This document shows, one piece after another, positions 1,987 to 35,070 of a DNA stretch of 45,413 nucleotides. Each line of letters opens with the position of its first letter. Position 1 is the stretch's first letter. The notes under the pieces are model-generated. The model saw nothing but the letters and a program-made list of their open reading frames with translations. It made no database searches and was not told where the DNA came from. The stretch spans positions 1 through 45,413 of the forward strand of contig JBKPAK010000142.1 of NCBI GenBank assembly GCA_046726415.1, read 5' to 3'. Source of the stretch: Candidatus Methylomirabilota bacterium (GTDB taxonomy: Bacteria > Methylomirabilota > Methylomirabilia > Rokubacteriales > CSP1-6). The translations under genes and the position numbers were made by a program.

Positions 1987-3591
1987 TCACTTGCTGGCCC
2001 GGGTCACGTATTCCCAGTTGTGGATCCCCATGTGACCCGGGATCAAGGGCCATTCCCCCACCTTCGGCCCCACGCCGGCAATCGAGTGCGTCGCCCCGAT
2101 GCTGACCGCCGGCATGTACTCATAGAGCCACGGCCCCATCTCCTCGCGCATGATCCGGGTTCGCTCGGCGGCGTTCGGTTCCGCCCCCAGGCGCTCGATG
2201 AACGCGTCGAGCTTGGGATGCTCCACCAGCAGATGCACCGCCGACTTCGTCTGGGCGATGCGCGCGAACAGCTCCCAGGGCTCCGGGGCGATGATCGGCC
2301 CGGCGTAGGCCAGCGTCACTCCCGCATACGACCGCGCCCGGAAATCCGCCGAGAACACCGCCCGGTCCACGGGCCGCCGTTTGACCTTGAGGCCCACTTT
2401 CTCCCAGTAGGTCGCCACCGCCTCGCCCACATCGGGCAGATATCCTCTGCCCGGCCAGGCGGTCAGGTTCATGGTGACCTCGAAGCCATTGGGATAGCCC
2501 GCCTCCGCGAGCAGCGCCTTCGCTTTCGGGGGGTCGTAGGGAACCGGTTTCAGCAGGGCGTCCGAGATCCAGGGGTCCGAGGGGTAGTAGTTCACCGTCC
2601 CGACGGGCGTTCCCACCCCGCCGAGCACCCGCTCGATGATCGCTTTCTTGTCCACGGCAAGGTTAAGGGCCAGGCGCACCTTCTTCGCACGCTCGGCGTC
2701 GGGCTGCGCCCAGGGCACCTTTGGGTCGTAGCTCGGTTTGGTCGGCCACTGCCCGCCGAGGATCACCCACACGGCGGCGACGTTGGGCATGACGAGCGTC
2801 CGCATTCCGACCTTCTTCAGCTCGTCCAAGTACTCGCCGCCGATCTCGATGACGTCGGCGCTGCCTGCGCGCAACATGGCCATGCGGGTGGCGGGCTCGG
2901 GCACCTTCACGAACACCAGCCGCTTGAAGTGAGGCACCGCTCGCCAGTGGTTGTCCATCGCCTCGTAGACGATGCGATCGCCGCGGACGTGCTCCACGAA
3001 TTTCCAGGGCCCGGTGCCGACGGGCTGACGCTCCGCCCCTTGCTCGCCGGCGGTCTCGATATGTTTCTTGGACTGGATATAGGCGACGGAGGCGAACAAT
3101 CCTTGCGTGACCCGGTTGCCCAAGGTCACGAACGGCTTGTCGAAGCGCAGGGTGATCGTGTACGGCCCCTCGACCTCCATGCTCTTGATCGTGCGGAACT
3201 CGGGCGCCATGGAATTGGCGGAGCCTTCCTTGGCGATTGAGGCGAAGGTGAATTTGACGTCCTCGGCCGTCACTTCCGACCCGTTGTGGAAGCGCACCCC
3301 TTTGCGGAGGTGGAATTTCCAGGTCCGTGCCCCGTCCGCGACCTCCCACCGCTCGGCCAGCATGGGGATCAGGTTGCCCTTGGCGTCGCGAGACAACAGG
3401 TTTTCCCATAGGGGCTTGAGCACGATGTCCTCGGCCCCGACGTAGAGACTGGGCAACCAGCGCTCGTTGCCGAAGGTGGCCACCGCCACCGTCAGCGTCC
3501 CCTCTGGCCGGGCAGCTGCCCAGGGCGCCGCGATGGCAACCCACAGGGAGGCCGCCACGATCAACGCGGTGATCCAGAACCGCTGCCTCAT
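1987..3591 (-). CDS. ABC transporter substrate-binding protein, family 5 (copy 1)
   Basis: Signal peptide MRQRFWITAL..; LRKGVRFHNG..TAEDVKFT; GTGPWKF; start chosen from AAGGAGGGAG SD. Confidence 0.92.
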   Translation of the reverse strand: MRQRFWITALIVAASLWVAIAAPWAAARPEGTLTVAVATFGNERWLPSLYVGAEDIVLKPLWENLLSRDAKGNLIPMLAERWEVADGARTWKFHLRKGVRFHNGSEVTAEDVKFTFASIAKEGSANSMAPEFRTIKSMEVEGPYTITLRFDKPFVTLGNRVTQGLFASVAYIQSKKHIETAGEQGAERQPVGTGPWKFVEHVRGDRIVYEAMDNHWRAVPHFKRLVFVKVPEPATRMAMLRAGSADVIEIGGEYLDELKKVGMRTLVMPNVAAVWVILGGQWPTKPSYDPKVPWAQPDAERAKKVRLALNLAVDKKAIIERVLGGVGTPVGTVNYYPSDPWISDALLKPVPYDPPKAKALLAEAGYPNGFEVTMNLTAWPGRGYLPDVGEAVATYWEKVGLKVKRRPVDRAVFSADFRARSYAGVTLAYAGPIIAPEPWELFARIAQTKSAVHLLVEHPKLDAFIERLGAEPNAAERTRIMREEMGPWLYEYMPAVSIGATHSIAGVGPKVGEWPLIPGHMGIHNWEYVTRASK

Positions 3592-3637
3592 AACTCCCTC
3601 CTTGCGGGCAGGCCCGAGCGGCGCATGCCGCCACAAT

Positions 3638-3685
3638 CCTTCCGGGGGGGACTCGGAAGGGGCCGTCGAAGCCCCTTCGACGGCC
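3638..3685. repeat. Intergenic double hairpin / REP-like palindrome between the two SBP genes
   Basis: CCTTCCG..CGGAAGG followed by GGCCGTCGAAG-CCC-CTTCGACGGCC. Confidence 0.7.
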
Positions 3686-5292
3686 TAGCGGGCGCGCGTC
3701 ACATACTCCCAGTTGTGAAACCCCATGTGGCCGGGGATCAGCGGCCATTCCCCCACCTTCGGCCCCACCCCGGCGATGGCATGGGCGGCCCCGATGGCGA
3801 CGCCGGGGACGTACTCGTAGAGCCAGGGTCCCAGTTCCTCGCGCATGATGCGCACGCGCTCCGCGTGGTTGGGCTGGATGGCGAGACGGTCGATCAACTC
3901 GTCCAGCCTGGGATGCTCCATGAAGAGATTCAGGGCAGCCTTGCTATGGCCCCCTCGGATCATGACCTCCCAGGGTTCGGGAGCGACCAGCGGAGCGGCA
4001 TACGCCAGCGTAACTCCCGCGTAGGCTCGCGCCCGGAAGTCCGCCGAGAACACCGCCCGGTCAACCGGCCGCCGCTTGACCTTGATGCCCACCTTCTCCC
4101 AGTACGTCGCTACCGCCTCGCCGACGTCCGGGAGATAGCCTCGCCCCGGCCACGCGGTGAGGTTCATGGTCACCTCGAAGCCGCTTGGATAGCCGCCGTC
4201 CGCCAGCAGCGCCTTTGCCTTGGCTGGGTCGTAGGGCAACGGTTTCTTCAAGGCTTCAGTGGCCCACGGGTCGTTGGGGTACGTCATCCAGGAGCCCACC
4301 ACGGTTCCCAGCCCGCCGAGCACCCGCTGCATGATGGCCTGCTTGTCCACCGCCAGGTTGAGCGCCAGGCGCACCTTGCGGGCTCGTTCCGCGTCGGGCT
4401 GCGCCCACGGCACCTTGGGATCATAGGTGGGCTTGGTGGGCCATTGCCCGCCCAGGATGACGTAGACCCACGACACGTTGGGCATGAGGAGCGTCCGTAC
4501 GCCGACCTTTTTCAGTTCCTCAACGTATTCGCCGCCGATCTCGATGACGTCGACGCTGCCCGCGCGGAGCATCGCCATGCGGGTGGCCGGCTCGGGCACC
4601 TTCAGCATCACCAGGCGCTTGAAGTTGGGCGTGGCCCGCCAGTGGTTCTCCACCGCCTCGTACACGATGCGATCGCCGCGGACGTGCTCCACGAACTTCC
4701 AGGGACCGGTGGCCACCGGATTCCGCTCCGCGCCTTGCTCGCCTGCGGTCTCGATGTGGTGCTTGGACTGGATAAAGGCCGACGACGCGAACAGCCCCTG
4801 GGTCACCTTGTTGCCGAACACCACCGATGGCTTGTCGAAGCGCACGGTGATGGTGTACCGGTCCTCGACTTCCATGCTCTTGATCTGCCGGAACTCCGGC
4901 GCCAGGGAATTGGCCGAGCCTTCCTTGGCGACGGAGGCGAAGGTGAACTTGACGTCTTCCGCCGTGACTTCACCGCGGCCGCCGTGGAAGTGGACACCCT
5001 TGCGCAAGTAGAACGTCCAGGTGCGGCCGCCGTCAGCGACCTTCCAGCGCTCCGCGAGCATGGGACTCAATTCGCCGGTCTTGGGGTCGCGAGACAGGAG
5101 ATTCTCGTACATGGGCTTGAGGACTACATCCTCGGCCCCGACGTAGAGATAGGGTAACCAGCGCTCGTTGCCGAACGTGGCGACGGCCACCGTCAGCGTC
5201 CCCTCCGGCTTGGCCGCTTCCCCCGAGGCACCGGCGAGAGCCCACAGAGCGGCCGTGGCGATCATCGTGGCGATCCAGAGCGGTCGACTCAT
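3685..5292 (-). CDS. ABC transporter substrate-binding protein, family 5 (copy 2, tandem paralog)
   Basis: Start MSRPLWIAT after AGGAGG SD; long stretches identical to the 1987-3591 protein. Confidence 0.92.
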   Translation of the reverse strand: MSRPLWIATMIATAALWALAGASGEAAKPEGTLTVAVATFGNERWLPYLYVGAEDVVLKPMYENLLSRDPKTGELSPMLAERWKVADGGRTWTFYLRKGVHFHGGRGEVTAEDVKFTFASVAKEGSANSLAPEFRQIKSMEVEDRYTITVRFDKPSVVFGNKVTQGLFASSAFIQSKHHIETAGEQGAERNPVATGPWKFVEHVRGDRIVYEAVENHWRATPNFKRLVMLKVPEPATRMAMLRAGSVDVIEIGGEYVEELKKVGVRTLLMPNVSWVYVILGGQWPTKPTYDPKVPWAQPDAERARKVRLALNLAVDKQAIMQRVLGGLGTVVGSWMTYPNDPWATEALKKPLPYDPAKAKALLADGGYPSGFEVTMNLTAWPGRGYLPDVGEAVATYWEKVGIKVKRRPVDRAVFSADFRARAYAGVTLAYAAPLVAPEPWEVMIRGGHSKAALNLFMEHPRLDELIDRLAIQPNHAERVRIMREELGPWLYEYVPGVAIGAAHAIAGVGPKVGEWPLIPGHMGFHNWEYVTRAR

Positions 5293-6082: not shown

Positions 6083-6151
6083 GAATCTAGTAGCACCCCG
6101 GCCCAGCGATGTGGGGCCTAGTGGGCCGTCGGGTCCTCAGAACCTGGCGGA

Positions 6152-6225
6152 GATCGAGGAGCGCCCCGGCAAAGCCGTGGCGCTCCGAGTGCTGGGGGCT
6201 TGGGGGGTCATTCGGGGGCCCCCAT
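6152..6225 (-). repeat. ~72-bp REP-like palindromic element, copy A
   Basis: Reverse complement aligns end to end with 12321-12390; begins a few nt after a stop codon. Confidence 0.75.
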
Positions 6226-7288: not shown

Positions 7289-8938
7289 CTATAACCCTCC
7301 TTGTTCGTCGACAGAGACGGTGTTCTGGTACGTGCAGCCCATGATTCGCCAGTAGCCGTTGGTTTCGCCACCGACGACCACGATGTGGATATCCTCGCGC
7401 CGGAACATCGGAATCAGCTCGTCTGGGGCGGCACGGAGCTTCGACGCCCACGGCTCCTCGCCGAACGTGGCCCGCGGGTAGATGTAGTTCTGGACGAGCT
7501 GGTAGTCCCAGTACTCGCCGGCCGGCATGCGGGCGGTGTCGTAGAGCCAGTCCACCAGGGCCTCTTTCTTGGTGAAACCGCCCCGGTCGATGAACTGGCG
7601 CGCCGCGATGGGGTCGAGCAGCAGGGTCGGCGGCCCGTGAGGGTCCATGCCGCGCAGGAGATTGCGGACGTGCTCTCGCCAGTGTTTCTCCCGCAGTCCC
7701 AGCGTGAACGCGGTCGAACGGCAGCCGGTGAAAACACTCACCGTGCTGACGTCCGGCCTGAAGCCCCGCTGCACGTGGAAGGGCTCCCACGGGCTCCGCT
7801 CCTCGTTCTCCGCGAAGGTGAGGCTGTTGTACGCGTAGTTGTTGCCCTGGTTGCCCATGTAGCTGAGCCCGGGGACGGACCCGCCCTGGAGGTTCTGGGA
7901 CAGAAGGCCGTAGGCGCGGCCGATGGTGGCGTTGGCGTGGTTGTATGGCCCCATGGCGCCGGTGCCCGAATTCATGCCGATGGCGTGGCGGATCGGACCG
8001 TTCACCACGGCCATGGTGGCCACGGCACTGGAACTGCTACCGCGCGCCGTCACCCCGGTCGCGGCCAAGGCCAGAATCACGGGGAAGTACTCGGGCCGCG
8101 CCCCCGCCATCACCGCATTCACCGCCACCTTCTCGACGGTGTATTGCCAGTATTCGCGGAAGTGGGTCGAGCGCATCCGGCCGACGACCTCGTCGGGCTT
8201 GCGACGCGTCGCTGCCAGCATGGCCGCCACGCGCTCCTCCGTGGGGAGCACGATCGGCAACCCATCCGTCCAGTGATTGTCGAGGAACAGCCGCTCGAGA
8301 TTCTCCGCGGTGTCGGGCACGACGAGCCGCGGCGTCGAGCGGTCGAACTCGAGCGGGCCGAGGTCCGCCTCGGTGAGAGGCCGGGTGAGGCCCCCCACCA
8401 CTTCCTGCATCACCGGCCGCCCCGTGATGGGGTCCTGGCCGTCGACGTAGCTGCGCAGCTCGGCCGGCGTCTTGCCCATGATCGGCTGGGGGACGAACAC
8501 CTGCCGCAGCCCGGGCATCCCACTGACCTCCGCCACCGACCGGACCACGCGGTCGAACTTGTCGGTATGCATGGCCACGGTGGGGACGCCGTACTTCGCC
8601 TCGATTGTCATCGCGTGCGCGGCGACCGCCGGCGCGCAGGTGCTTCAGTGACCGACGCCGAGGATGGCGGCATGCCCCCTCGCCTTGATTTCCTCCCAGG
8701 TCGTCGGATCGTCGTTGAGGTAGACGCTCGAGATCGGCTTCACCACGGTCCGCACGCCTGCCATGTGCTCGGCGAACCACGCCTGCATCTGCCGCAGGAA
8801 GACATCCGAGTCGTCGAACCGGCAATCCACCAGATAGATCGTCTTGCCATCGAGCGCCGACAACCGCGGCGCGAGCGAATTCCGCGTGACCTTCGGCGCA
8901 AACCCCACCGGGTTCAGAACCGTGAGCGTGTCCCCCAT
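7289..8938 (-). CDS. UGSC-type selenoprotein (549 aa; Sec encoded by TGA at 8645-8647, UxxC motif)
   Basis: Continuous 1650-nt frame reading GVGH-TGA-STCAPAVAAHA-MTIE; hairpin just 3' of the TGA; C-terminal part has DGLPIVLPT, EKVAVNAVMAG and ANATIGRA motifs. Confidence 0.85.
8622..8638 (-). promoter_or_regulatory. Putative bacterial SECIS hairpin
   Basis: UGCG-(CGC bulge)-CGGC-[GGUC]-GCCG-CGCA; the stem starts 6 nt after the UGA, the G-led apical loop starts 18 nt after it, and the 3' arm extends to about 8616. Confidence 0.6.
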
Positions 8939-11322: not shown

Positions 11323-12318
11323 ATGCGAAGCATCGATGTCCATGCCCACGTGACGCCCCAGTGCTTCTGGCGAGCCACCGAGAACGGCGGCGACTGGCAC
11401 ACGATCCGACGCGAGCGGGATACGCGCGGTCAGGAGTGCGCTCTCGTCGGCAGCGGCCGGCAGCTCCTCCCGCCGCGCGCCCGCTGGACTCCGGAGGAGC
11501 GCTTGGCCGACATGGACTCGCTCGGGGTCGACGTTCACGTCGCCTCCCCCTACGTGGGGTTCTACAACTATCACCTTCCCCTCGAGGTCGCCCGAGCGAC
11601 GGCGCAGGCCACCAATGACGAGATCGCTGGCATGGTCAAGACTTGGCCGGCGCGCTTCGCGGGGCTCGGGACCCTGCCCATGCAGGACGTGAAGGCGGCC
11701 ATCGCCGAGTTGGAGCGTTGCATGACCCAGCTGGGCCTCAAGGGAGCGGAAATCAACGATCACGTCAACGGCCGCACCCTCGACGAGCCGGAGTTCCGTC
11801 CCTTCTGGAAGGCCGCCGAGCAGATGGGCGCCCTCGTGTTCTTCCACCAGGGCGGCGAGACCTTAGTCAGCCCGCGAACCAAGCGCTATCACCTCCCGAA
11901 CACCATTGGCAACCTCGTCGATCGCGCTGTCACCTTCGCCACCCTGGTATCGGGCGGCGTCATGGACGAGTACCCGAACCTCAAGATCGTGCTCGGTCAT
12001 GGCGGCGGATACACCTGTTACGGGATCGGACGCATGGACCACGGATGGCAGGTGCGCTCGGAGGCGCGTGTCAACATCTCGAAGCCGCCCAGCGCATATC
12101 TTCGTCACTTCTACTACGACTGCATCGTCTACACGGAGTCGGCGCTCCGCTTCCTCATCGATACGGTGGGCGCCGACCGCGTGGTGTTCGGCACCGACTG
12201 GCCGTACGACATGGCGCTCGACTGGCCCGTCTCCTGGATCCTCGGCATGAAATCGCTCGCCCAGGAGGAAAAGGACGCCATCCTCTGGAAGAACCTCGAG
12301 AAGCTCCTGGGTCTTTAG
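11323..12318 (+). CDS. Amidohydrolase_2 family protein (ACMSD-like decarboxylase/hydrolase)
   Basis: IDVHAH, GHGGG, FGTDWPYD; GAGGAG SD. Confidence 0.9.
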   Translation: MRSIDVHAHVTPQCFWRATENGGDWHTIRRERDTRGQECALVGSGRQLLPPRARWTPEERLADMDSLGVDVHVASPYVGFYNYHLPLEVARATAQATNDEIAGMVKTWPARFAGLGTLPMQDVKAAIAELERCMTQLGLKGAEINDHVNGRTLDEPEFRPFWKAAEQMGALVFFHQGGETLVSPRTKRYHLPNTIGNLVDRAVTFATLVSGGVMDEYPNLKIVLGHGGGYTCYGIGRMDHGWQVRSEARVNISKPPSAYLRHFYYDCIVYTESALRFLIDTVGADRVVFGTDWPYDMALDWPVSWILGMKSLAQEEKDAILWKNLEKLLGL

Positions 12319-12320
12319 AC

Positions 12321-12390
12321 ATGGGGGGCCCCGAACTGGCCCTCCATACCCCCCAGCGCTCGGCGCGCCCCGGCGGCCGCCCCCTCGATC
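12321..12390 (+). repeat. ~70-bp REP-like palindromic element, copy B
   Basis: ATGGGGGGCCCCGAACTGGCCC..CTCGATC matches the reverse complement of 6152-6225. Confidence 0.75.
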
Positions 12391-27523: not shown

Positions 27524-27914
27524 GTCCCATGTGCGGGATGCACAGGCCACGACGCTCGACCGGCTCGCGACTTCGTGCGCACATGACGACGAGCCGTGCG
27601 AACGGAGTCGGAGCTTGCTCAGAAACGAGGCGCAACCGATCGAGGAATGGGCACCTCGACCGATCGCCGCTTGGCCTGACCCGACCTGGGCGTTGGACAA
27701 TGGTGTCCGTGCGAGGGTATCCACGATGGACTCGCTCCCGACTTTCGATCGACGAGGGCATCGACCCCTGCCCGAGAATGTTCCGGTAACGGTACTCTGG
27801 CTGCTGCCCGTGGGCAAGATCACTGGCCGTGGGCGGGGAGTCCGGAGCAGTCGGTATATCCCAAGACGCGTGACCGAATCCCCCCGGCCCTCGTCATCGG
27901 AAAGGAGAGAGCAC

Positions 27915-28304
27915 GTGAAACGAGAACTTCAGAACCCGCCCGGCGTGCACAAGCCTCAGGCCCACTATTCGCACGTGGCGCAGGCCGGGCCGACGCTCTA
28001 CATTGCCGGCCAGCTGGCCATGGATCCCTCGGGTACCGTCGTCGGCGTCGGCGACGCCGCCGCTCAGACGCGCCAGTGCTACCGAAACCTGGCCGCGATC
28101 CTCACCCACTATGGCGGGAACCTGCGCCACCTGGTGAAGACCACCACCTTCATCACTCACTGGGCGTATCGCCCGCTGGTGGCGGTCGCCCGCGACGAGT
28201 TCTTCCCCGCCCCTCCCTATCCGGCCAACACGCTGGTCGTCGTACAAGGTCTCGCCGAGCCCCATTTCCTGGTCGAGATCGAAGGCATCGCCGTCCTCGA
28301 CTGA
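27915..28304 (+). CDS. RidA/YjgF family protein
   Basis: YSH..AG..LYIAGQ, PANTLV.V.GL, VEIEGIA; AAGGAG SD with GTG start. Confidence 0.9.
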   Translation: MKRELQNPPGVHKPQAHYSHVAQAGPTLYIAGQLAMDPSGTVVGVGDAAAQTRQCYRNLAAILTHYGGNLRHLVKTTTFITHWAYRPLVAVARDEFFPAPPYPANTLVVVQGLAEPHFLVEIEGIAVLD

Positions 28305-28334
28305 CCGGCCACGGATGGGGACGCGCAGGGATTC

Positions 28335-28565
28335 CTAGGTCGGCTTCTCGGGGCCATGCTCTGGGACGAACTGGTCGCGTCGTGTGCTGAACGTGCGGAG
28401 CACGCTCCGGTCTCTTTCGAACGGGAGATTGGCGAGGCCGACGCCCGCGACGTCGTCAGGATCCAGGGGGCCGCAGCATCCTACGACGCGGCCCCGGGTC
28501 AGCTCGACCACCCACAATTTTCCGGATACGCGGTCCTTCCAGAGCTCACGCTTCGTCCCGGCCAT
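28335..28565 (-). CDS. Small hypothetical protein (76 aa)
   Basis: Co-oriented 48 bp after metK; protein-like composition; GCCGP motif. Confidence 0.55.
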   Translation of the reverse strand: MAGTKRELWKDRVSGKLWVVELTRGRVVGCCGPLDPDDVAGVGLANLPFERDRSVLRTFSTRRDQFVPEHGPEKPT

Positions 28566-28613
28566 GGCGAGGCCCTCACGTCTTTGCGGCCATGCCTGAC
28601 CCTCGTGCGCCGC

Positions 28614-29828
28614 CTACGTGAGCGCGCGCGCCGCGCGGGCCAGCTCGGCTCGCTGGCCCTCGCTCTCCCAGGGAGCTTCCAGATCGCGCCGGCCGAAGTG
28701 ACCGTACGAGGCCAGACGCCTGTAAAAGAGTCCATCGTGCTGGGCGGGCAGTTCTCGAAGGCGGAATTGCTTGAGGATTGCCGCCGGCCGCAAGTCCATG
28801 GTCTCCTCGACCACCTTGGCCAAGACGTCGTCCGGTGCCATCCCCGTCCCGAACGTCTGCACCGACACGGTGAGCGGCTGGGCCTGGCCGATCGCGTAGG
28901 CCAGGTGCACCTCGCATTCCCCGCACAGGCCCGCCGCCACGAGATTGCTCGCCGCGTGGCGCGCCGCATAGGCGCCCAGCCGATCGATGTGGTCCGGATC
29001 CTTCCCCGACAGCGCGCCGCCACCGTGCCGGCTATAGCCACCATAGGTGTCCACCGTGTTTTTGCGACCGGTGAGCCCGGCGTCACGTCGCGGTCCGCCG
29101 ACGACGAACGGACCGCCCGGATTCACGAAGAGACGCGCGGTCCGTTCGAACTCGATCCCCACCTCGCCGAGGACGGGGGCCAGGACGGCCTGCCGGATGT
29201 CGTCTTCGAGCTGCCGGCCCGCTCCTGCCGGACCCTTGCGCCCCGCACTCGTCTGGACGCTGATCACCACGGTGTGCAGGCGGACCGGTCGCCGGCCTTC
29301 GAACTCCACGGCGACCAGGGTCTTCCCATCGGGTCCGAGATAGGACAGGGCCTTCGTCCGGCGTACCTCGTCGAGCCGGCGGGCGAGCCGGTGGGCCAGG
29401 GCAATGGGCAAAGGCATGCGCTCGGGGGTATGCGTGCAGGCATAGCCGAAGACGGAGGCCTGGTCGGATGCCACCATGGCGTCCAGCTCGTCTTGGGCGT
29501 CGCCGACCACGCTGCGCGCACCGTGGGGGGCGTGATGCGCCAGACTGGTGATGACGCTGGCGTTCTCCGGGTCGAAGCCTTGCGCCTCGGTGTACCCGAT
29601 GTCTCGAATGACTTTTCGCGCCACATCAGCGGGATCCACGCCGCCCGATGACGTGGAGGTCACGGCCAGAAAGACGAGCCCAGTCGCCACGGCGCATTCG
29701 GCTGAGACTTGCGCCTCGGGGTCGAGGTAGAGAAAAGCGTCCACGACGGCGTCCGAGATCTGATCACAGATCTTGTCCGGATGGCCGCGCGTCACCGACT
29801 CCGAGGTGAACACCGTCCGTCTGGTCAC
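28614..29828 (-). CDS. metK: Divergent S-adenosylmethionine synthetase (MetK paralog)
   Basis: FTSESV..GHPDKICDQISD, GLTGRK..DTYGG, GGGALSGKD, YGHFGR; GTGA overlap with the ATPase stop. Confidence 0.9.
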   Translation of the reverse strand: MTRRTVFTSESVTRGHPDKICDQISDAVVDAFLYLDPEAQVSAECAVATGLVFLAVTSTSSGGVDPADVARKVIRDIGYTEAQGFDPENASVITSLAHHAPHGARSVVGDAQDELDAMVASDQASVFGYACTHTPERMPLPIALAHRLARRLDEVRRTKALSYLGPDGKTLVAVEFEGRRPVRLHTVVISVQTSAGRKGPAGAGRQLEDDIRQAVLAPVLGEVGIEFERTARLFVNPGGPFVVGGPRRDAGLTGRKNTVDTYGGYSRHGGGALSGKDPDHIDRLGAYAARHAASNLVAAGLCGECEVHLAYAIGQAQPLTVSVQTFGTGMAPDDVLAKVVEETMDLRPAAILKQFRLRELPAQHDGLFYRRLASYGHFGRRDLEAPWESEGQRAELARAARALT

Positions 29829-32800
29829 GCTCCCTGCCCTCCTTTCACGAGACGCCTCGCGGCCTTCTCGATCTCGCGCACGACCAAGGGGGCCGTGGCG
29901 CCCGCGGCCACGGCGATCCAGTCGCCGAGGCCGAGCGGGGTCGTGCCGAGCAACCTCCGCAGCACGGGTACGGTCACGCTTGCCGTCTGCAAGGCCAACG
30001 TGCCCCCGAGCGCCCCTATCATGAGGGGATTTTGGCCGAGATCCGCGAGTCCGGAGCGGGTCTCCGAACGACAGCTCAAGGCATGGAGCAGTTGCGACGT
30101 CGTCAGTGTGGAAAAGGCCACCGTCGAGGCCTGGGCCCCCAGCCCATGCCGGGCGGCCGCGATCCCGTACGAGGCCAGGGCAGCCGCGGCCAGGAGCGCG
30201 GCATCGCGGCTGACGCCGAGCAGGGCCCGCCCGGACAGAATGGATTCGTCGCGCTCGCGTGGCTCCTGGAGCATGACGTCCCGCTCGGGAGGCTCCACGG
30301 CCAGGGCGAGCGCGGGCACCACGTCGGACAACAGGTTGATCCAGAGGAGCTGCACCGCGCTGAGCGGACGGGCAACGCCCAGCGCGATGGCGCTGACGGT
30401 GACCAGGATCTCGCTGAGGTTTGTGGCGAGGAGGAAGTTCAGCGCCTTGCGGATGTTGGTGTGGGTCGTGCGCCCCTGCTCGATGGCCCCCACCAGGGAT
30501 GTCAAGTCATCGTCGAGCAGCACGACATCGCCGAGGTCCCGCGCCACGTCGGTGCCGCTCGGCCCCATGGCCACGCCGATGTCCGCCGCCCGGAGCGCCG
30601 GGCCATCGTTGATGCCGTCGCCAGTCATGGCCACGACCTCGCCGCTGGTCTGAAGCGCCTTCACGATCTGGTACTTGTGCGCGGGCGACACGCGCGCAAA
30701 GATGTCGACCTCGCCGGCCAGCCCGCGCAGCGCCTCCGGGGTCAGCGCGGAGAGCTGCGTGGCCTCGACCACCCGGAGGCTGCCGTTGCGTTCGAGGCCT
30801 AGCGTGCGCCCCACCGCGATCGCTGTCCCGCTCTGGTCGCCGGTGAGCATCACGACGCGCATACCGGCGCGTTGGCAGGCCGCGATGGCTTTGCGCACAC
30901 CAGGTCGGATCGGATCGGCCATGCCGACCAGCCCCGCCCATATCAGGTCCTCGTGCTCGGCCGCGCCGTCCTCCGGTTCTCGGAACGCGAGCCCAAGCAC
31001 GCGCATCGCCTGGTCGGCCATGCGCGCGTTGGCAGACAGGATCTCTCGTCGCAGCTTGGGCGTCAGACGCCGGGGCGAACCGTTGGAGCCCAAGAGTTGG
31101 GTCGATCGCTGCAGGACTTCCTCTGGCGCCCCTTTGACGGCAACCAGCTCGTGGCCATCGGCGTTCCGGTGTCGGGTGGCCATCCAGTTTTGACCCTCGG
31201 CGCGGGGTCGGACGGCGGCGAGCGGGAACGCGTTGCGGACCTCTCGATAGTCCAGCCCGTGGCGCCGGGCCGCCTCGAGGAGCGCTCCCTCGGTGGCGCT
31301 GCCGCGGATCTGGGGCGCGTCGGCGGCACCCGCCAGCTCCGCCTCATTGCAGAGCACGGCCACCAAGATGGCCCGGGCCAGCCTTGGATCCGTGTCGTTC
31401 GGCGCCGAGTCGCCGGATTCGCCGCCGGCATCGGTCCGCTCCGCCCGTCTGCCTGGGTCGGCGACGAAGACGCCGTTCTCGAGCGCCCATGCCTGGACCG
31501 TCATGCGGTTCGCGGTGACGGTTCCTGTCTTGTCGACGCAGATGACCGTGGTCGCCCCCAGACTCTCGATCACTTCCAAGCGACGCACGAGAGCCTGCCG
31601 CCGCAGCATTCGATGCATACCGAGGGCGAGCGTGGTCGTCGCCACCGCCGGCAGGCCCTCAGGCACCGCAGCCACGCCGAGCGCGATTGCCGTTCGCGCC
31701 ATCTCGACCAATGACACGCCGCGGAGAAGGCCCAGGCCCAGGGCGAGCCCGCACAGCGCGGTGGTCACGCCGACCAGCGTTCGTCCCATCTGGGTGAGGT
31801 GCGCCTCCAGCGGAGTCGGCGGCGACTCCGCCTTGGCGATCAGGGCCTGGATGCGCCCGACCTCCGAGCTCGATCCGGTCTCGGTGACCACAGCCAGGCC
31901 GGTGCCGTCGCTCACCACGGTTTTCGCGAAGACCATGTTGGTGCGGTCAGCCAGCGGCGTGTCATCCGCATGCGCGACCGCGGCGCGCTTCGCCACGGGC
32001 ATGCTTTCGCCGGTCAGCAGCGATTCGTTCACGAGCAGTCCACCGTCCTCGAGGAGGCGACCATCCGCCGACACTTCGTGGCCTGCCCGCAGCAGGACGA
32101 CATCGCCCGGAACGAGCGTTGCAGCCGGGACGAGGCTGTCTTGCCCGTCGCGGCGCACCAGGGCCGTCGGGACGGCCAGCCGCTGGAGCGACGTCAGGAT
32201 CCGCTCCACGCGGCTCTCCGTGATGTACCCGACCGCGGCATTCACGACCACGACGCCGACGATCACAAGGGCGTCGAAGATGCCGCCGCTCAGGAGCGAG
32301 ACGGCTGCCGCTCCCGCGAGAAGCGCCACCGGCAAGGTGGCCACCTGATCCACGAGGATGCTCATCCGCGATTTGGGCTCAGGGGTGGGCAGGAGGTTCG
32401 CTCCATACGCGGCCAAACGCCTCTCGGACTCCATCCCCGACAGCCCACGGTCTGGGCCGACCTCAAGGTGTGCTGTGACGGCCTCGGCGTCCATGGCGTG
32501 CCAGGGTGTCCGCCGCGCAACCCTGGGCGCACGGACCGGCATCCGCCCACGACGATCGCGCCTGGGGGTGGCCCTCGCCGGGCCGCGACAGCGGGCGATC
32601 TCCACGACGAGCTGGTTCACGGTCACCTGCGTGTCGTCGAAGAAGACGAGCACGGAGCCGGTGACGGGATTGACCCGGACGGACCCTACGCAGACGAGGG
32701 CCTCCAGACGCTCGCTGATGAGCGTGGCGAGCGCGGCAGATCGCCGGAGGCCCGCGACGCGCACTCGGAGCCGGCCACGTACGGCCACCGACAAGAGCGT

Positions 32801-32866
32801 GACCTGCAAAGGATCCGCGCGTGCTGTGGCAGTCATAGGCCGGTCAGCCGCCTCCACGGCGCGCAT
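29825..32866 (-). CDS. P2A-type (Ca2+-like) cation-transporting ATPase with N-terminal HMA-like domain
   Basis: TGES, PEGL, DKTGT, KGAPE, TGD and GDGIND motifs; M5 NLSE and M6 WINLLSD; alternative start 32836. Confidence 0.93.
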   Translation of the reverse strand: MRAVEAADRPMTATARADPLQVTLLSVAVRGRLRVRVAGLRRSAALATLISERLEALVCVGSVRVNPVTGSVLVFFDDTQVTVNQLVVEIARCRGPARATPRRDRRGRMPVRAPRVARRTPWHAMDAEAVTAHLEVGPDRGLSGMESERRLAAYGANLLPTPEPKSRMSILVDQVATLPVALLAGAAAVSLLSGGIFDALVIVGVVVVNAAVGYITESRVERILTSLQRLAVPTALVRRDGQDSLVPAATLVPGDVVLLRAGHEVSADGRLLEDGGLLVNESLLTGESMPVAKRAAVAHADDTPLADRTNMVFAKTVVSDGTGLAVVTETGSSSEVGRIQALIAKAESPPTPLEAHLTQMGRTLVGVTTALCGLALGLGLLRGVSLVEMARTAIALGVAAVPEGLPAVATTTLALGMHRMLRRQALVRRLEVIESLGATTVICVDKTGTVTANRMTVQAWALENGVFVADPGRRAERTDAGGESGDSAPNDTDPRLARAILVAVLCNEAELAGAADAPQIRGSATEGALLEAARRHGLDYREVRNAFPLAAVRPRAEGQNWMATRHRNADGHELVAVKGAPEEVLQRSTQLLGSNGSPRRLTPKLRREILSANARMADQAMRVLGLAFREPEDGAAEHEDLIWAGLVGMADPIRPGVRKAIAACQRAGMRVVMLTGDQSGTAIAVGRTLGLERNGSLRVVEATQLSALTPEALRGLAGEVDIFARVSPAHKYQIVKALQTSGEVVAMTGDGINDGPALRAADIGVAMGPSGTDVARDLGDVVLLDDDLTSLVGAIEQGRTTHTNIRKALNFLLATNLSEILVTVSAIALGVARPLSAVQLLWINLLSDVVPALALAVEPPERDVMLQEPRERDESILSGRALLGVSRDAALLAAAALASYGIAAARHGLGAQASTVAFSTLTTSQLLHALSCRSETRSGLADLGQNPLMIGALGGTLALQTASVTVPVLRRLLGTTPLGLGDWIAVAAGATAPLVVREIEKAARRLVKGGQGA

Positions 32867-33072
32867 AGCAACGGGCTCCGATGCGATCCTCGTCGCGCGA
32901 CAACTGGCGTAATCGCGTGTTCAATTTTTGCCCGCGGAGGATAGCGCCGGCATGTGACCGAGCTGCGACGGAAATGTTACGAGTTGTCGACGCGCTGCGC
33001 GCTCATCACCGCCGTCCGCTCAGGGGCTTCACATCGAGCCTCCTTCGCGCTCCGGCGATCAGCCAGCTTCAC

Positions 33073-33759
33073 TTAGCTCGTCGCCGCCGCCTTCGGCGCC
33101 CGCGCGGATCGCTTCGCTCTCTTCGCGCGGGCGAGCGGACGTCGCTCAGCCTTGGGCACTCGGGCCAACGGAGGTCGCCGAACACCCGCCTCGGCGAGGA
33201 CCGTCTTGATCCCGGCGACGGTCAGGGCACCACGCAGACTCCGCCCGGCCGCCGACCCCATGCGGCTGGCAGCGAAAGCGGCACCCTCCACCGCATCGAC
33301 GGCCAGGGATCCGACATCGGTCCCCACCTCTCGAGTCGCCTGGACGGTGGCCTTGGCGGTCCGCCGGGACAGAGCTCCCACATCTCCGCCCACTTCTTCG
33401 ACGGCATCAACCGTCGCCGCCGCCGACTTCTCGACGGCGTCCGAGAGCTGGCCTCCGATCTCCCTGACGGCCTTGATCGAGCCTTGGACCGTGCCTTTGG
33501 CAAATTGGCCAATGTCGCCACCGATGTCGGAGACGGCTCGAGTAACGCTGCGAGCGGTCGCTACGGCCAAGGAGCCTATCCGGCCTCCGACATCCTCGAC
33601 CGTCTCCACCGCCGCGGTCAGGGTGTTGTGAGCCAGCTGTACGACTCCTACCGTCAGGGCTTCGGCCGCGCCTGCGACGTCCTGAACGACCCGCGTCATG
33701 GGGCCACCGTTCAGCGCCTTCATCGTCGTCGGCCTGGCCGGCATTGCCTTTACTGCCAT
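33073..33759 (-). CDS. 22-aa-repeat amphipathic helical protein with basic Ala/Arg/Lys tail
   Basis: AGGAGG SD; five 22-residue units centred on (D/E)(V/I)G(G/T). Confidence 0.8.
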   Translation of the reverse strand: MAVKAMPARPTTMKALNGGPMTRVVQDVAGAAEALTVGVVQLAHNTLTAAVETVEDVGGRIGSLAVATARSVTRAVSDIGGDIGQFAKGTVQGSIKAVREIGGQLSDAVEKSAAATVDAVEEVGGDVGALSRRTAKATVQATREVGTDVGSLAVDAVEGAAFAASRMGSAAGRSLRGALTVAGIKTVLAEAGVRRPPLARVPKAERRPLARAKRAKRSARAPKAAATS

Positions 33760-33821
33760 CGTTTCCTCCTGTGAGGCCGCGAGATCATCGCGCAGCCATG
33801 TCGTCACCATGATGCAATGCA

Positions 33822-33853
33822 GTCACCGTACGGTGACGAGCAGAGCGCGTCAA
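33822..33853 (-). promoter_or_regulatory. Sigma-70 promoter overlapped by a perfect 16-bp palindrome
   Basis: TTGACG-17 nt-TACGGT; GTCACCGTACGGTGAC covers the -10 element. Confidence 0.6.
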
Positions 33854-34524
33854 GTTACGTTTTGCCCGAAACCGATGTCAGAGGTCGGCTACGCGCTCGA
33901 CGTGGCCTTCCATCTGACCGCCTTGGCCGCCGGGGAAGCTGTTTCGCGGTTCTGCGCTCAGCAGGCGCCTGGACGCACCTCGAGTTCCTGCCCAACATCC
34001 AGCGAAGCACGTGGGGCTGAAGCTCGCGGTCCTTGCCGCAGGCGCCAAACTCGCCAAGTCTCGGCCTGTCGGCGCGTCCGAGCCCCCGAATTTTCGGAGA
34101 GCGGCGCGGCGCTGGCCCGGCCGTCGTCAGTCTCGCCCGGAGGGCACTCACCCGCAACACTGCGGCCACCGGATCGTCACGCGACCGTCGAGCGTGCGAG
34201 CCCGCTCCGTTCCGTTCTGGAACACGGGCGTTCGATTCGAAACCGTTGGGAATCGCGAAACTGCGACGGCCGCGCCGTTATCGCAAGAAGGGTGTGGAGC
34301 AGAGAGACCGATGCCCCGCGTTCTCGTGACGGTTCGCGGGGCTTCGCGCAAACGACGCGATCGCCGACGGATGTCGTGGTTCGCGGTCCGCCCATTGCAC
34401 ACCACCCCGAAGGAGCGGCGAGCGACATCGAACAGAGAGAGACGCAAACGACATACAAGAGAAATCTGAACCGGCGGTGCTGCGGGCCAGGCCCGCGGCG
34501 CTCGACCAACAAAGGAAGGAATGC

Positions 34525-35070
34525 ATGCGAGTCTTTGGACTGGCCGTTGCGCTCGGTGTGTTGGCTCTGTCAGGGTACGCCCTACCGTCGTCCGCCGGCA
34601 GTCCCACGTCGCCGGCGAACAGCTCCCGGGCGATCGAAGGTGTCTGGCGGGGAATCATCACAGGGAGGGAGTTGAACACGGGTAGCGGCGCATCAGCCGA
34701 CACCCTCACCCTGGTCGTCGCGGCCGACGGTACGTGGACGGCCACGAGGGGCAGCGAACGCTGGAAGGGTACGGTGCGGCCGGTTGGAAACGGGTTCGAG
34801 TTCGACGGCACGACGAGCGCTGGTGGCCGGCCCGTCTCGTTTATGCTCCATCGATACGGGCGCGATGGTCTGGGTGGAGCGGTGGTGACCGACACTCAGG
34901 GGCGGCGCACGTCATTGACCGCCGACTTGCGCGCTGTTCCCAGCGCTGGCAGCACCGCCGGCGGCAGCGATAGCTCGGAAGGGAGCGCGTCGCCCCCGAG
35001 TGCTCCGGCCCCGTCGAACTTTGGCCGGACGCCGGGACAGTATCCGGAGATGGGAACCCAGGCGCCGTAG
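34525..35070 (+). CDS. Exported hypothetical protein with a beta-rich domain and S/P/G-rich tail
   Basis: Signal peptide MRVFGLAVALGVLAL; IEGVWRG and DGTW motifs; AAGGA SD. Confidence 0.7.
   Translation: MRVFGLAVALGVLALSGYALPSSAGSPTSPANSSRAIEGVWRGIITGRELNTGSGASADTLTLVVAADGTWTATRGSERWKGTVRPVGNGFEFDGTTSAGGRPVSFMLHRYGRDGLGGAVVTDTQGRRTSLTADLRAVPSAGSTAGGSDSSEGSASPPSAPAPSNFGRTPGQYPEMGTQAP

Follow-up and report, generated by a model that had tools for sequence, protein, structure and literature searches.

Why a bacterium should keep a second gene of the S-adenosylmethionine (SAM) synthetase family, MetK, with its start codon overlapping the stop codon of a cation pump is the question raised by a locus at positions 28335-33853 of a 45,413-nucleotide stretch of DNA from a Candidatus Methylomirabilota bacterium. 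This whole stretch, which we call the window, is contig C142 of genome G000, a 7.6-Mb metagenome-assembled genome (MAG) of 352 contigs that is 98% complete with 4.66% contamination. An initial annotation, made from the letters alone, had proposed that four genes here, encoding an amphipathic repeat protein, a P2A ATPase fused to an HMA domain, an altered MetK and a small protein, form a system which coats or builds an intracellular compartment and pumps a cation. Our analysis suggests that three of these genes belong to a larger and conserved membrane cassette. With moderate confidence we read that cassette as Pho-linked, combining a calcium-type pump with CoBaHMA, DUF5132 and repeat proteins and with a putatively neofunctionalised MetK-like partner that would handle ATP or triphosphate.

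All four open reading frames (ORFs) lie on the minus strand, in the order repeat protein (33073-33810, 245 aa as listed), P2A-like ATPase (29825-32866, 1013 aa), MetK-like protein (28614-29828, 404 aa, GTG start) and an orphan ORF of 76 aa (28335-28565). The co-orientation and spacing first described are borne out by these coordinates: the GTG start of the MetK-like gene and the TGA stop of the ATPase gene share four nucleotides (GTGA), the 76-aa ORF follows after 48 nt, and 206 nt separate the repeat gene from the ATPase gene. The first three genes are real and grouped, but the fourth is unsupported as a member because the 76-aa ORF has no match in Pfam or NCBIfam, has no homologue in any of the 40 other related genomes searched, and stands 3' of the MetK-like gene where relatives carry a second repeat-protein gene. 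It probably lies outside the system and is possibly not a gene at all.

The pairing of the pump and the MetK-like gene is not a peculiarity of the window. Conserved synteny does exist in other genomes, with the MetK-like gene directly behind the CoBaHMA-P2A ATPase gene in 13/13 informative records from at least five labelled phyla (the window, G001, G002, G050, L107, L108, L109, L112, G059, L007, L129, L130 and L142, the last with just a C-terminal remnant of the pump). In all seven intact junctions the start of the MetK-like gene overlaps the stop of the pump gene by 4-8 nt (GTGA, ATGA, GTGGCTAG or ATGGCTAG), and a purine-rich stretch precedes that start. Among 61 related genomes the MetK-like gene occurs in five, all of them within the eight whose pump is of the cassette type (identity of 55% or more, N-terminus included in the match); an even sample across the phylum gave 4/201, and the genomes G011 and G025, which have neither gene, are counted in these denominators and bear on nothing else here. 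A scan of metagenomes with generic MetK patterns, which for that reason returned few cassette-type loci, found the catalytic Lys replaced by His or Arg in 5/80 MetK loci. The three of these that were long enough to judge have pump sequence directly upstream (the remnant only in L142), compared with none of the 71 that have Lys there, and none of the other MetK loci returned by our MetK search has an adjoining pump. The association between the MetK-like gene and the pump is specific.

Loci collected through MetK, repeat-family and related-genome searches, and mapped with tblastn and Pfam, place this pair within a longer gene order. The full cassette comprises a DUF5132 membrane protein (~95-130 aa, with an N-terminal hydrophobic segment), a stand-alone HMA_2/CoBaHMA protein (~170-200 aa, with a C-terminal hydrophobic hairpin), a cysteine-free P1B-like ATPase (~710-790 aa, with an N-terminal HMA_2 domain and TIGR01525 scores of 428-446 bits), a small ORF (~73 aa), the CoBaHMA (HMA_2)-P2A ATPase, in some copies only the MetK-like protein, and finally the 22-mer amphipathic repeat protein. 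P1B pumps normally carry a Cys-Pro-Cys motif, which is replaced by [AS]-D-[YS]-G in 7/7 of the P1B-like sequences. The MAGs in which we found the cassette bear the labels Methylomirabilota/Rokubacteria, Terriglobia, Gemmatimonadales, Binatia and Actinomycetota. The MetK-like gene is present in the copies from Rokubacteria (G000, G001, G002, G050 and G059), from one MAG each of the Gemmatimonadales (L108), Terriglobia (L006/L109), Methylomirabilota (L112, whose contig is also that of G108) and Binatia (L007), and from three contigs of metagenomes (L129, L130 and L142), as well as in one from a possibly mis-binned MAG labelled Actinomycetota (L107), whose repeat protein and that of G050 share 98% identity. 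In copies that lack it (L115, L116, the first copy of L118, the partial L114, and G019/G012/G035 at L225-L227) the repeat gene directly follows the pump gene. Judged by gene content and order, the trio in the window is a rearranged part of this conserved accessory membrane cassette. That the window holds only a part of a larger gene set had escaped the initial annotation.

Several cassettes show arrangements of their own. At L118 (G059:C30) two copies, one with and one without the MetK-like gene, flank a gene for a 747-aa Phosphodiest protein, with ppx and ppk1 directly upstream and Porin_O_P downstream. In the Binatia type (L007 9624-11160; L129 3524-5126) the MetK-like protein has Arg at the Lys position and its gene is followed by one for an ArsA/GET3-like ATPase with an HSP20-like domain and, on the opposite strand, by a further stand-alone CoBaHMA gene. 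The pump of G002 (L098/L113) and both the pump and the MetK-like gene of G001 (L101/L110) are broken into several ORFs in long-contig MAGs, which may be due to frameshift errors in assembly or to real decay.

The window itself departs from the common order in that the repeat gene lies directly upstream of the P2A pump gene. The first half of the cassette is elsewhere in G000, where the CoBaHMA-hairpin gene, the P1B-like pump gene and the small ORF sit at the end of contig C283; no match to DUF5132 was found in this 98% complete assembly, C283 ending at just that point. DNA homology to same-genus genomes is confined to 28607-32863 and 33086-33863, breaking at ~28607-28627, beside the MetK-like stop, and again between the repeat gene and the pump. 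Contigs from four soil sequencing runs bear on whether this layout is real. One contig of 4444 bases from run X1, which may be the MAG's own source sample, covers 28506-32950 in agreement with the window, short pieces from the same run tile 32921-33042, another covers 33013-34423, and no single piece bridges 28503-28506. Of 21 sequencing runs listed, none was of RNA. No island signature in base composition was seen around the locus (GC 0.67-0.705). A repeat element of ~60-80 bp, present in the window at 6147-6225 and 12318-12376, matches several intergenic sites in the same-genus cassette locus L101/L110, including sites just 3' of the MetK-like gene and 5' of DUF5132. Since it sits where the arrangement of the window differs, this element may have driven the rearrangement or caused assembly breaks.

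What sets the MetK-like protein apart is the way in which its active site has changed. It has all three methionine adenosyltransferase (MAT) domains in Pfam and scores 389.9 bits against TIGR01034 (cut-off 309.4; 389.5 bits in the genome scan), but it is only ~48-52% identical to canonical MetKs and ~50% identical to the canonical copy in its own genome. That separate metK, which the initial annotation had said should be sought, lies at C125:1399-2517 and scores 589.9 bits, and a canonical MetK is kept by all carriers of the MetK-like gene. We compared 119 members of the MetK-like clade with 83 canonical MetKs over the 133 columns that are at least 93% conserved in the latter, mapping residues to human MAT2A through conserved alignment motifs and not through structure. 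The description of this MetK as altered proved apt: 39 of the 133 columns differ, among them the methionine-contact Glu, the Gln-Ser of the gating loop and a catalytic Lys. In window numbering, Gly56-Glu57 of the GEIT motif becomes Val followed by Asn, Thr, His or Ser, with Glu in 0/119 rows; Gln99-Ser100 at the start of the gating loop becomes Arg or His followed by a variable residue, the loop being mostly shortened; the GAGDQG motif becomes [QVP][RA][ST][QHD]QA; Phe273 becomes Leu and Ile257 becomes Asn; and Lys280, the equivalent of MAT2A Lys289, is His in 118/119 and Arg in the Binatia type. The window protein accordingly has T57, H99, A100, H280, L273 and N257 at its methionine site and gating loop. 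On the methionine side the pocket has thus lost two acidic side chains (positions 14 and 57) and gained basic ones (Arg14; Arg or His99). The residues that bind ATP, triphosphate and metal are retained, with His16, Asp18, Lys19, Glu44, Lys169, Phe241, Asp249 (the equivalent of MAT2A Asp258), Arg255, Lys256, Lys276 and Asp282 invariant in 27 clade members. Work on human MAT2A (PMC6850014) describes Glu70 and Gln113 as binding the methionine main chain together with Asp258, counts Lys289 among the catalytic residues, and reports 2.5% activity left in S114A. The same work describes gating-loop mutants and the K289N patient variant as losing SAM synthesis whilst keeping phosphatase activity.

In an unrooted tree of 67 MetKs, limited to the lineages that our searches returned, 21 cassette MetK-like proteins fall on one side of a single branch with support of 100/99. 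A second branch, with support of 98/96, separates these 21 and four cyanobacterial-type MetKs from the remainder. A 7-residue C-terminal insertion is common to these two groups, and the hosts' own MetKs are placed elsewhere in the tree. The clade numbers at least 120 clusters at 90% identity. Measured against the G002 copy, the ratio of nonsynonymous to synonymous substitution rates (dN/dS) comes to 0.08, and against the G050 copy to 0.17, dS being close to saturation. With a canonical copy on C125, the MetK-like protein is not the genome's housekeeping SAM synthetase.

Turning to the pump, the P2A family assignment holds in Pfam (Cation_ATPase_N, E1-E2_ATPase, Cation_ATPase, Hydrolase and Cation_ATPase_C), as does the fusion to an HMA domain, which the initial annotation did not recognise as a CoBaHMA domain (HMA_2, PF19991; aa 28-88, nt 32603-32785; 34.2 bits against a cut-off of 30, and 36.9 bits in the genome scan). 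Its catalytic motifs (DKTGT, TGES and GDGxNDxP, the last reading GDGIND in the window) are invariant in 10 cassette pumps, and the same holds for E403 in PEGL, N816 and E819 in transmembrane helix 5 (TM5), N844 and D848 in TM6 and Q925 in TM8. When aligned to LMCA1, the window pump holds E403, N816, E819, N844, S847 and D848, with Q925 at the position of SERCA E908, and so matches six of the seven positions that we take to be the Ca2+-site ligands of SERCA (E309, N768, E771, N796, T799, D800 and E908). The closest solved structures are those of Listeria LMCA1 (6zhf, E 1.5e-141) and human SPCA1 (8iwp, 5.4e-141). The suggestion that the protein pumps a cation is therefore a reasonable one, and from these likenesses our best guess for the substrate is a divalent cation of the Ca2+ type.

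The N-terminal domain of the pump was modelled with a mean pLDDT of 82 in the order b0-b1-a1-b2-b3-a2, with strands at residues 12-16, 22-27, 50-56 and 61-66. Its top fold matches are HMA domains with target-normalised TM-scores of 0.67-0.79, although the E-values are weak (1.6e-3 and weaker), and the extra N-terminal strand b0 on the HMA-like ferredoxin fold is present in the model, as in CoBaHMA. A basic Gly-Arg-x-Arg signature is invariant in 14 cassette CoBaHMA domains, and aa 1-120 of the pump contain no CxxC. The CoBaHMA domain was first named in PMC8890360, where the His upstream of b1 is strictly conserved in the calcyanin type, and a preprint equates it with PF19991 (bioRxiv 10.1101/2024.07.07.602159). 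The pump domain has Ser/Val at this place (LSVAVRGR), whereas the stand-alone and P1B-linked CoBaHMA domains of the cassette do keep the His.

The ORF of the repeat protein is open to 33810, but the ATG at 33759 (MAVKAMP...) is the more likely start, given the AGGAGG upstream and the fact that homologues begin at that Met, and this leaves a gene of 228 aa at 33073-33759. The protein consists of about six amphipathic 22-residue units (V-x-x-[VI]-G-G-D-[VIL]-G...) followed by a basic tail rich in Arg, Lys and Pro. Self-comparison returned the period at offsets of 22, 44 and 66 residues (z 8.8, 7.3 and 6.3), and the mean helical hydrophobic moment is 1.26 against 0.55 +/- 0.08 in shuffled sequences. 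Family members vary by insertions and deletions of whole 22- or 44-residue units, with the basic tail at the end, and the gene has a dN/dS of 0.14 against its G001 orthologue. When run against 1.84 billion representatives, the family profile matched 852 proteins at E<=1e-3, of which 341 also pass E<=1e-10 and 38 also pass E<=1e-30; these 852 are representatives of clusters at 50% identity, and composition bias may inflate the weak end. No Pfam family scored above its cut-off for the window protein, none of the 14 relatives from a word-based search has a Pfam domain, and in a protein atlas the protein falls among unnamed clusters only, the nearest named one being DUF6781 at 0.76. Membership of the phasins (PF09361, Phasin_2) was considered and rejected, with scores of 19.6 bits for this protein and 17.3 bits for a second family member against a cut-off of 24.9. 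The AlphaFold model is all-helical and of low confidence (mean pLDDT 59). Three more matches to the family profile are present in G000, one on contig C9 and two on C37. The latter two, on the piece G000:C37:1-3779 (L126), lie at 4-213 on the minus strand, cut by the contig end, and at 616-1305 on the plus strand, and have a pstS-like gene (2917-3779) as a neighbour.

Comparing the regions upstream of cassette first genes yielded a direct repeat, the motif CGT[AC]A[CT]-N5-CGT[AC]A[CT], which has an 11-bp period. Exact copies number seven in 260 kb of 15 non-redundant cassette loci, where shuffled sequences gave a mean of 0.3 and a maximum of 3 in 200, whilst 1.89 Mb of 176 other loci contain none, and neither do the 482 kb of high-GC loci. 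Three held-out cassette loci, fetched only after the motif had been defined, hold five exact copies in 44 kb (shuffle mean 0.04), a number that 0/1000 shuffles reached. Five of the seven copies lie ~75-145 nt upstream of the DUF5132 gene, as does one held-out copy, at 75 nt. The window has a Pho-box-like site, overlooked in the initial annotation, on the minus strand at 32954-32981, ~100 nt upstream of the ATPase ATG, with 11-bp-spaced units CGTAAC, CGTCGC and GGTCAC, of which 32965-32981 forms a one-mismatch copy followed by the third unit.

Elsewhere in G000, where the motif with no more than one mismatch turns up roughly every 24 kb, the 7.6-kb contig C289 carries four such sites against ~0.3 expected. 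This contig (L210, L222) encodes an inorganic pyrophosphatase, a Ppx/GppA protein, a PHP_C fragment, three tandem Amphi-Trp (PF20068) proteins and a pstS-like protein, besides an ORF of 263 aa. One site also stands 220 nt upstream of a second pstS-like gene, on C245. Phosphate genes also lie by the cassettes themselves: ppx-ppk1, Phosphodiest and Porin_O_P in G059, PhoX in L112, Metallophos in L108 and L109, and a PP_kinase_N fragment in G002. We infer that the 11-bp-spaced repeat may be this lineage's Pho box, a binding site for PhoB, and since the motif of the cassette promoters also occurs at pstS-like and ppx genes of G000, Pho control of the cassette appears likely.

The promoter first proposed for the locus is a different matter. 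A single palindrome-overlapped promoter had been suggested for all four genes, and the 16-bp palindrome GTCACCGTACGGTGAC does exist upstream of the repeat gene (33822-33837, minus strand), where it can also be read as GTCAC-N6-GTGAC with an 11-bp spacing. TTGACG stands at 33848-33853, 17 nt upstream of TACGGT (33825-33830). However, the palindrome occurs in no other fetched locus, a same-genus genome keeping TTGAC and CGTACGGT and not the palindrome arms, and a consensus scan of 27800-34600 returned no sigma-70-like promoter. Given that the ATPase gene has its own upstream repeat at 32954-32981, a single promoter for all four genes is unsupported.

If these strands are drawn together, then a PhoB-type regulator would switch the cassette on when phosphate runs short. 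Ca2+ or a similar divalent cation would then be exported from the cytoplasm by the P2A pump, through a patch of membrane that the CoBaHMA, DUF5132 and repeat proteins organise. The MetK-like protein, no longer a housekeeping SAM synthetase, would work next to the pump, either as an enzyme that handles ATP or tripolyphosphate or as a subunit that senses nucleotides. We consider this account somewhat more probable than all of its competitors taken together, and a number of observations weigh against it. On the regulatory side, the window holds five near-matches to the motif against 2.4 expected, a number reached in 10/100 shuffles, and its own Pho-like site carries one mismatch; the exact motif is not enriched genome-wide in G000 (10 copies against 6-10 in shuffles); one of the four pstS-like loci (C24) has no site; and the genes that flank the cassette in the window are not phosphate genes. 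The pump scores below the curated cut-offs for both PMR1-type (TIGR01522, 597.0 against 798.3) and SERCA-type (TIGR01116, 536.7 against 703.4) enzymes, and Gln at the position of SERCA E908 and LMCA1 R795 makes Ca2+ a tentative assignment. The seven cassette copies that lack the MetK-like gene imply that it is dispensable for the core function, and the split arrangement in G000 may partly be an effect of assembly, given the 352 contigs of this MAG. No single residue change in the MetK-like protein is decisive either, as MAT2A Q113A alone retains 76% activity (PMC6850014), and this, together with the passing of the TIGR01034 cut-off and the Asp122 retained by the window copy, makes residual SAM synthesis possible.

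The last of these points leads to a plainer explanation, in which an ordinary Ca2+ (or Mn2+) efflux ATPase is paired with a working SAM synthetase isozyme that meets an extra demand for SAM under phosphate limitation, for example for phosphorus-free lipids or methylation. The pass in TIGR01034 (389.9 against 309.4), the retention of all triphosphate and metal residues and of Asp249, the strong purifying selection (dN/dS 0.08) and a SAM-dependent methyltransferase gene adjoining the Terriglobia cassette would all fit with this. It is difficult to reconcile, however, with the replacement of the methionine-contact Glu in 119/119 members, the loss of the gating-loop Gln-Ser with shortening of the loop, and His in place of the Lys289 equivalent in 118/119, given that S114A and K289N strongly cut SAM synthesis in MAT enzymes (PMC6850014); every carrier also has a canonical MetK. 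We regard such an isozyme as rather improbable. Far less credible still is the notion that there is no system here at all, merely chance neighbours or a mis-assembled MAG with the MetK copy as a decaying duplicate. The fragmentation and contamination (4.66%) of G000, the two breaks in same-genus homology (one beside the MetK-like stop, the other separating the repeat gene from the pump) and the frameshift-split copies of G001 and G002 could be taken that way, but 13 records, labelled as five or more phyla, show the same adjacency, start and stop overlap in 7/7 intact junctions, and dN/dS is 0.08-0.17. The 4444-base X1 contig spanning 28506-32950 also speaks against it, though X1 may be the MAG's own sample. 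On conserved synteny, start-stop overlap and dN/dS, chance adjacency and a decaying duplicate were rejected.

A more ambitious alternative extends the compartment idea of the initial annotation. Here the cassette would make a membrane-bounded intracellular Ca-rich inclusion, of carbonate like intracellular amorphous calcium carbonate (iACC) or of Ca-(poly)phosphate like acidocalcisomes, with the pump loading Ca2+, the CoBaHMA and DUF5132 proteins marking the membrane, the repeat protein coating it and the MetK-like protein processing tri- or polyphosphate at the surface. The cassette is headed by a DUF5132 and CoBaHMA-hairpin pair as in the Microcystis ccyA neighbourhood; the repeat protein is strongly amphipathic with weak phasin-like matches, ppx-ppk1 and other phosphate genes adjoin cassettes, and the MetK-like clade groups with cyanobacterial-type MetKs. 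Set against this, inclusions have been observed in no carrier; no calcyanin or GlyZip protein turned up in the cassette, though no search aimed at calcyanin was made; the repeat protein, for which the model has low confidence (pLDDT 59), does not belong to the GlyZip proteins; and the phasin match is under the cut-off. The coating or building of a compartment, which draws on the amphipathic repeat protein and on likeness to the ccyA neighbourhood, is thus unproven, and we think a storage body unlikely, if somewhat less so than a SAM synthetase isozyme. The boldest form of the idea, which seems doubtful to us but is worth stating, is that soil bacteria outside the cyanobacteria may build a membrane-bounded calcium store (carbonate or calcium-polyphosphate) at phosphate shortage. 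The MetK-like protein would then be a MAT fold that has abandoned methionine and docked to the pump, as an enzyme that processes tri- or polyphosphate or that transfers adenosyl groups to another substrate. If this were true, a family that ranks among the most conserved of all enzymes would have gained a new activity, and there would be a handle outside cyanobacteria on the CoBaHMA and DUF5132 proteins of carbonate-granule loci.

The flanking genes in the window encode an NMT1-type ABC transporter, a RidA-like protein, a 2-hydroxyacid dehydrogenase and a hydrolase, and terminator-like sites are no more frequent than expected (2 observed against 2.2). A gene of the UGSC family (PF24696) at 7289-8938 on the minus strand is read as two ORFs (8645-8938 and 7289-8611), being split by an in-frame TGA at 8645-8647 (GVGH-TGA-STC, resembling U-x-x-C) which is a candidate selenocysteine codon.

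Almost every organism has a MetK, and the active site of the enzyme hardly varies. A version in which the methionine side has been rewritten and the ATP side kept, and which is always coupled to a calcium-type pump, may therefore indicate that the MAT fold has an activity, or a role in regulation, that is so far undescribed. More broadly, in soil phyla without cultured members the cassette would connect CoBaHMA and DUF5132 proteins with P-type pumps and with a limited supply of phosphate. These proteins have elsewhere been discussed around the cyanobacterial gene for intracellular carbonate, and the cassette represents a second, independent context from which their function might be learned. 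If the Pho link holds, then this may bear on how soil bacteria couple calcium handling to phosphorus scarcity. We found no description of the cassette in the literature that we covered, which did not include the study reportedly defining CoBaHMA, said to be that of Gaschignard et al. in 2024 (Proteins 92:776), and that study may list pump fusions.

Like bacterial MetK and human MAT2A, the MetK-like protein has three MAT domains and the ATP, triphosphate and metal residues, but unlike them it lacks the methionine-contact Glu and the gating-loop Gln-Ser, has an altered GAGDQG motif and has His at the Lys289 equivalent; and unlike a housekeeping MetK it belongs to a clade of its own on a long stem, occurs always in addition to another copy and appears translationally coupled to a pump. 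The pump shares Cation_ATPase_N/C, DKTGT, TGES, PEGL and the TM5 Asn/Glu and TM6 Asn/Ser-Thr/Asp ligands with the P2A Ca2+-ATPases (LMCA1, SPCA1/PMR1 and SERCA), from which it differs in its ~120-residue N-terminal CoBaHMA domain and in always lying inside a cassette. The repeat protein resembles phasins and the 11/22-mers of apolipoprotein- and perilipin-like proteins in its 22-residue period, high hydrophobic moment and all-helical model, whereas it differs from phasins and amphipathic coats in the Gly-Gly-Asp of each unit, the basic tail and the lack of a Pfam model.

As a locus, the nearest likeness may be to the ccyA neighbourhood of Microcystis, where calcyanin and a Ca2+/H+ exchanger are encoded together with two DUF5132 proteins and two CoBaHMA proteins, one of these having a DUF454-like hairpin at its C-terminus (bioRxiv 10.1101/2024.07.07.602159). 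The cassettes of the window's relatives share with the locus of Microcystis aeruginosa PCC 7806 a DUF5132 and CoBaHMA-hairpin pair beside a Ca-type transporter. They differ in having two P-type ATPases instead of the CAX exchanger, in adding the repeat protein and the MetK-like protein, and in their hosts, which are soil Methylomirabilota, Acidobacteriota, Gemmatimonadota and Binatota and not cyanobacteria. The repeat protein is built of 22-mer units as opposed to the ~50-residue GlyZip motif of calcyanin (PMC8890360), and the pump domain, unlike the CoBaHMA domain of calcyanin, has no His upstream of b1. Ferrosome (fez) and other P-type-ATPase organelle loci, the precedent named in the initial annotation and here an analogy only, likewise combine a P-type ATPase with small membrane proteins of unknown function, but in the cassette the main pump is P2A-like and its P1B-like companion has [AS]-D-[YS]-G for Cys-Pro-Cys.

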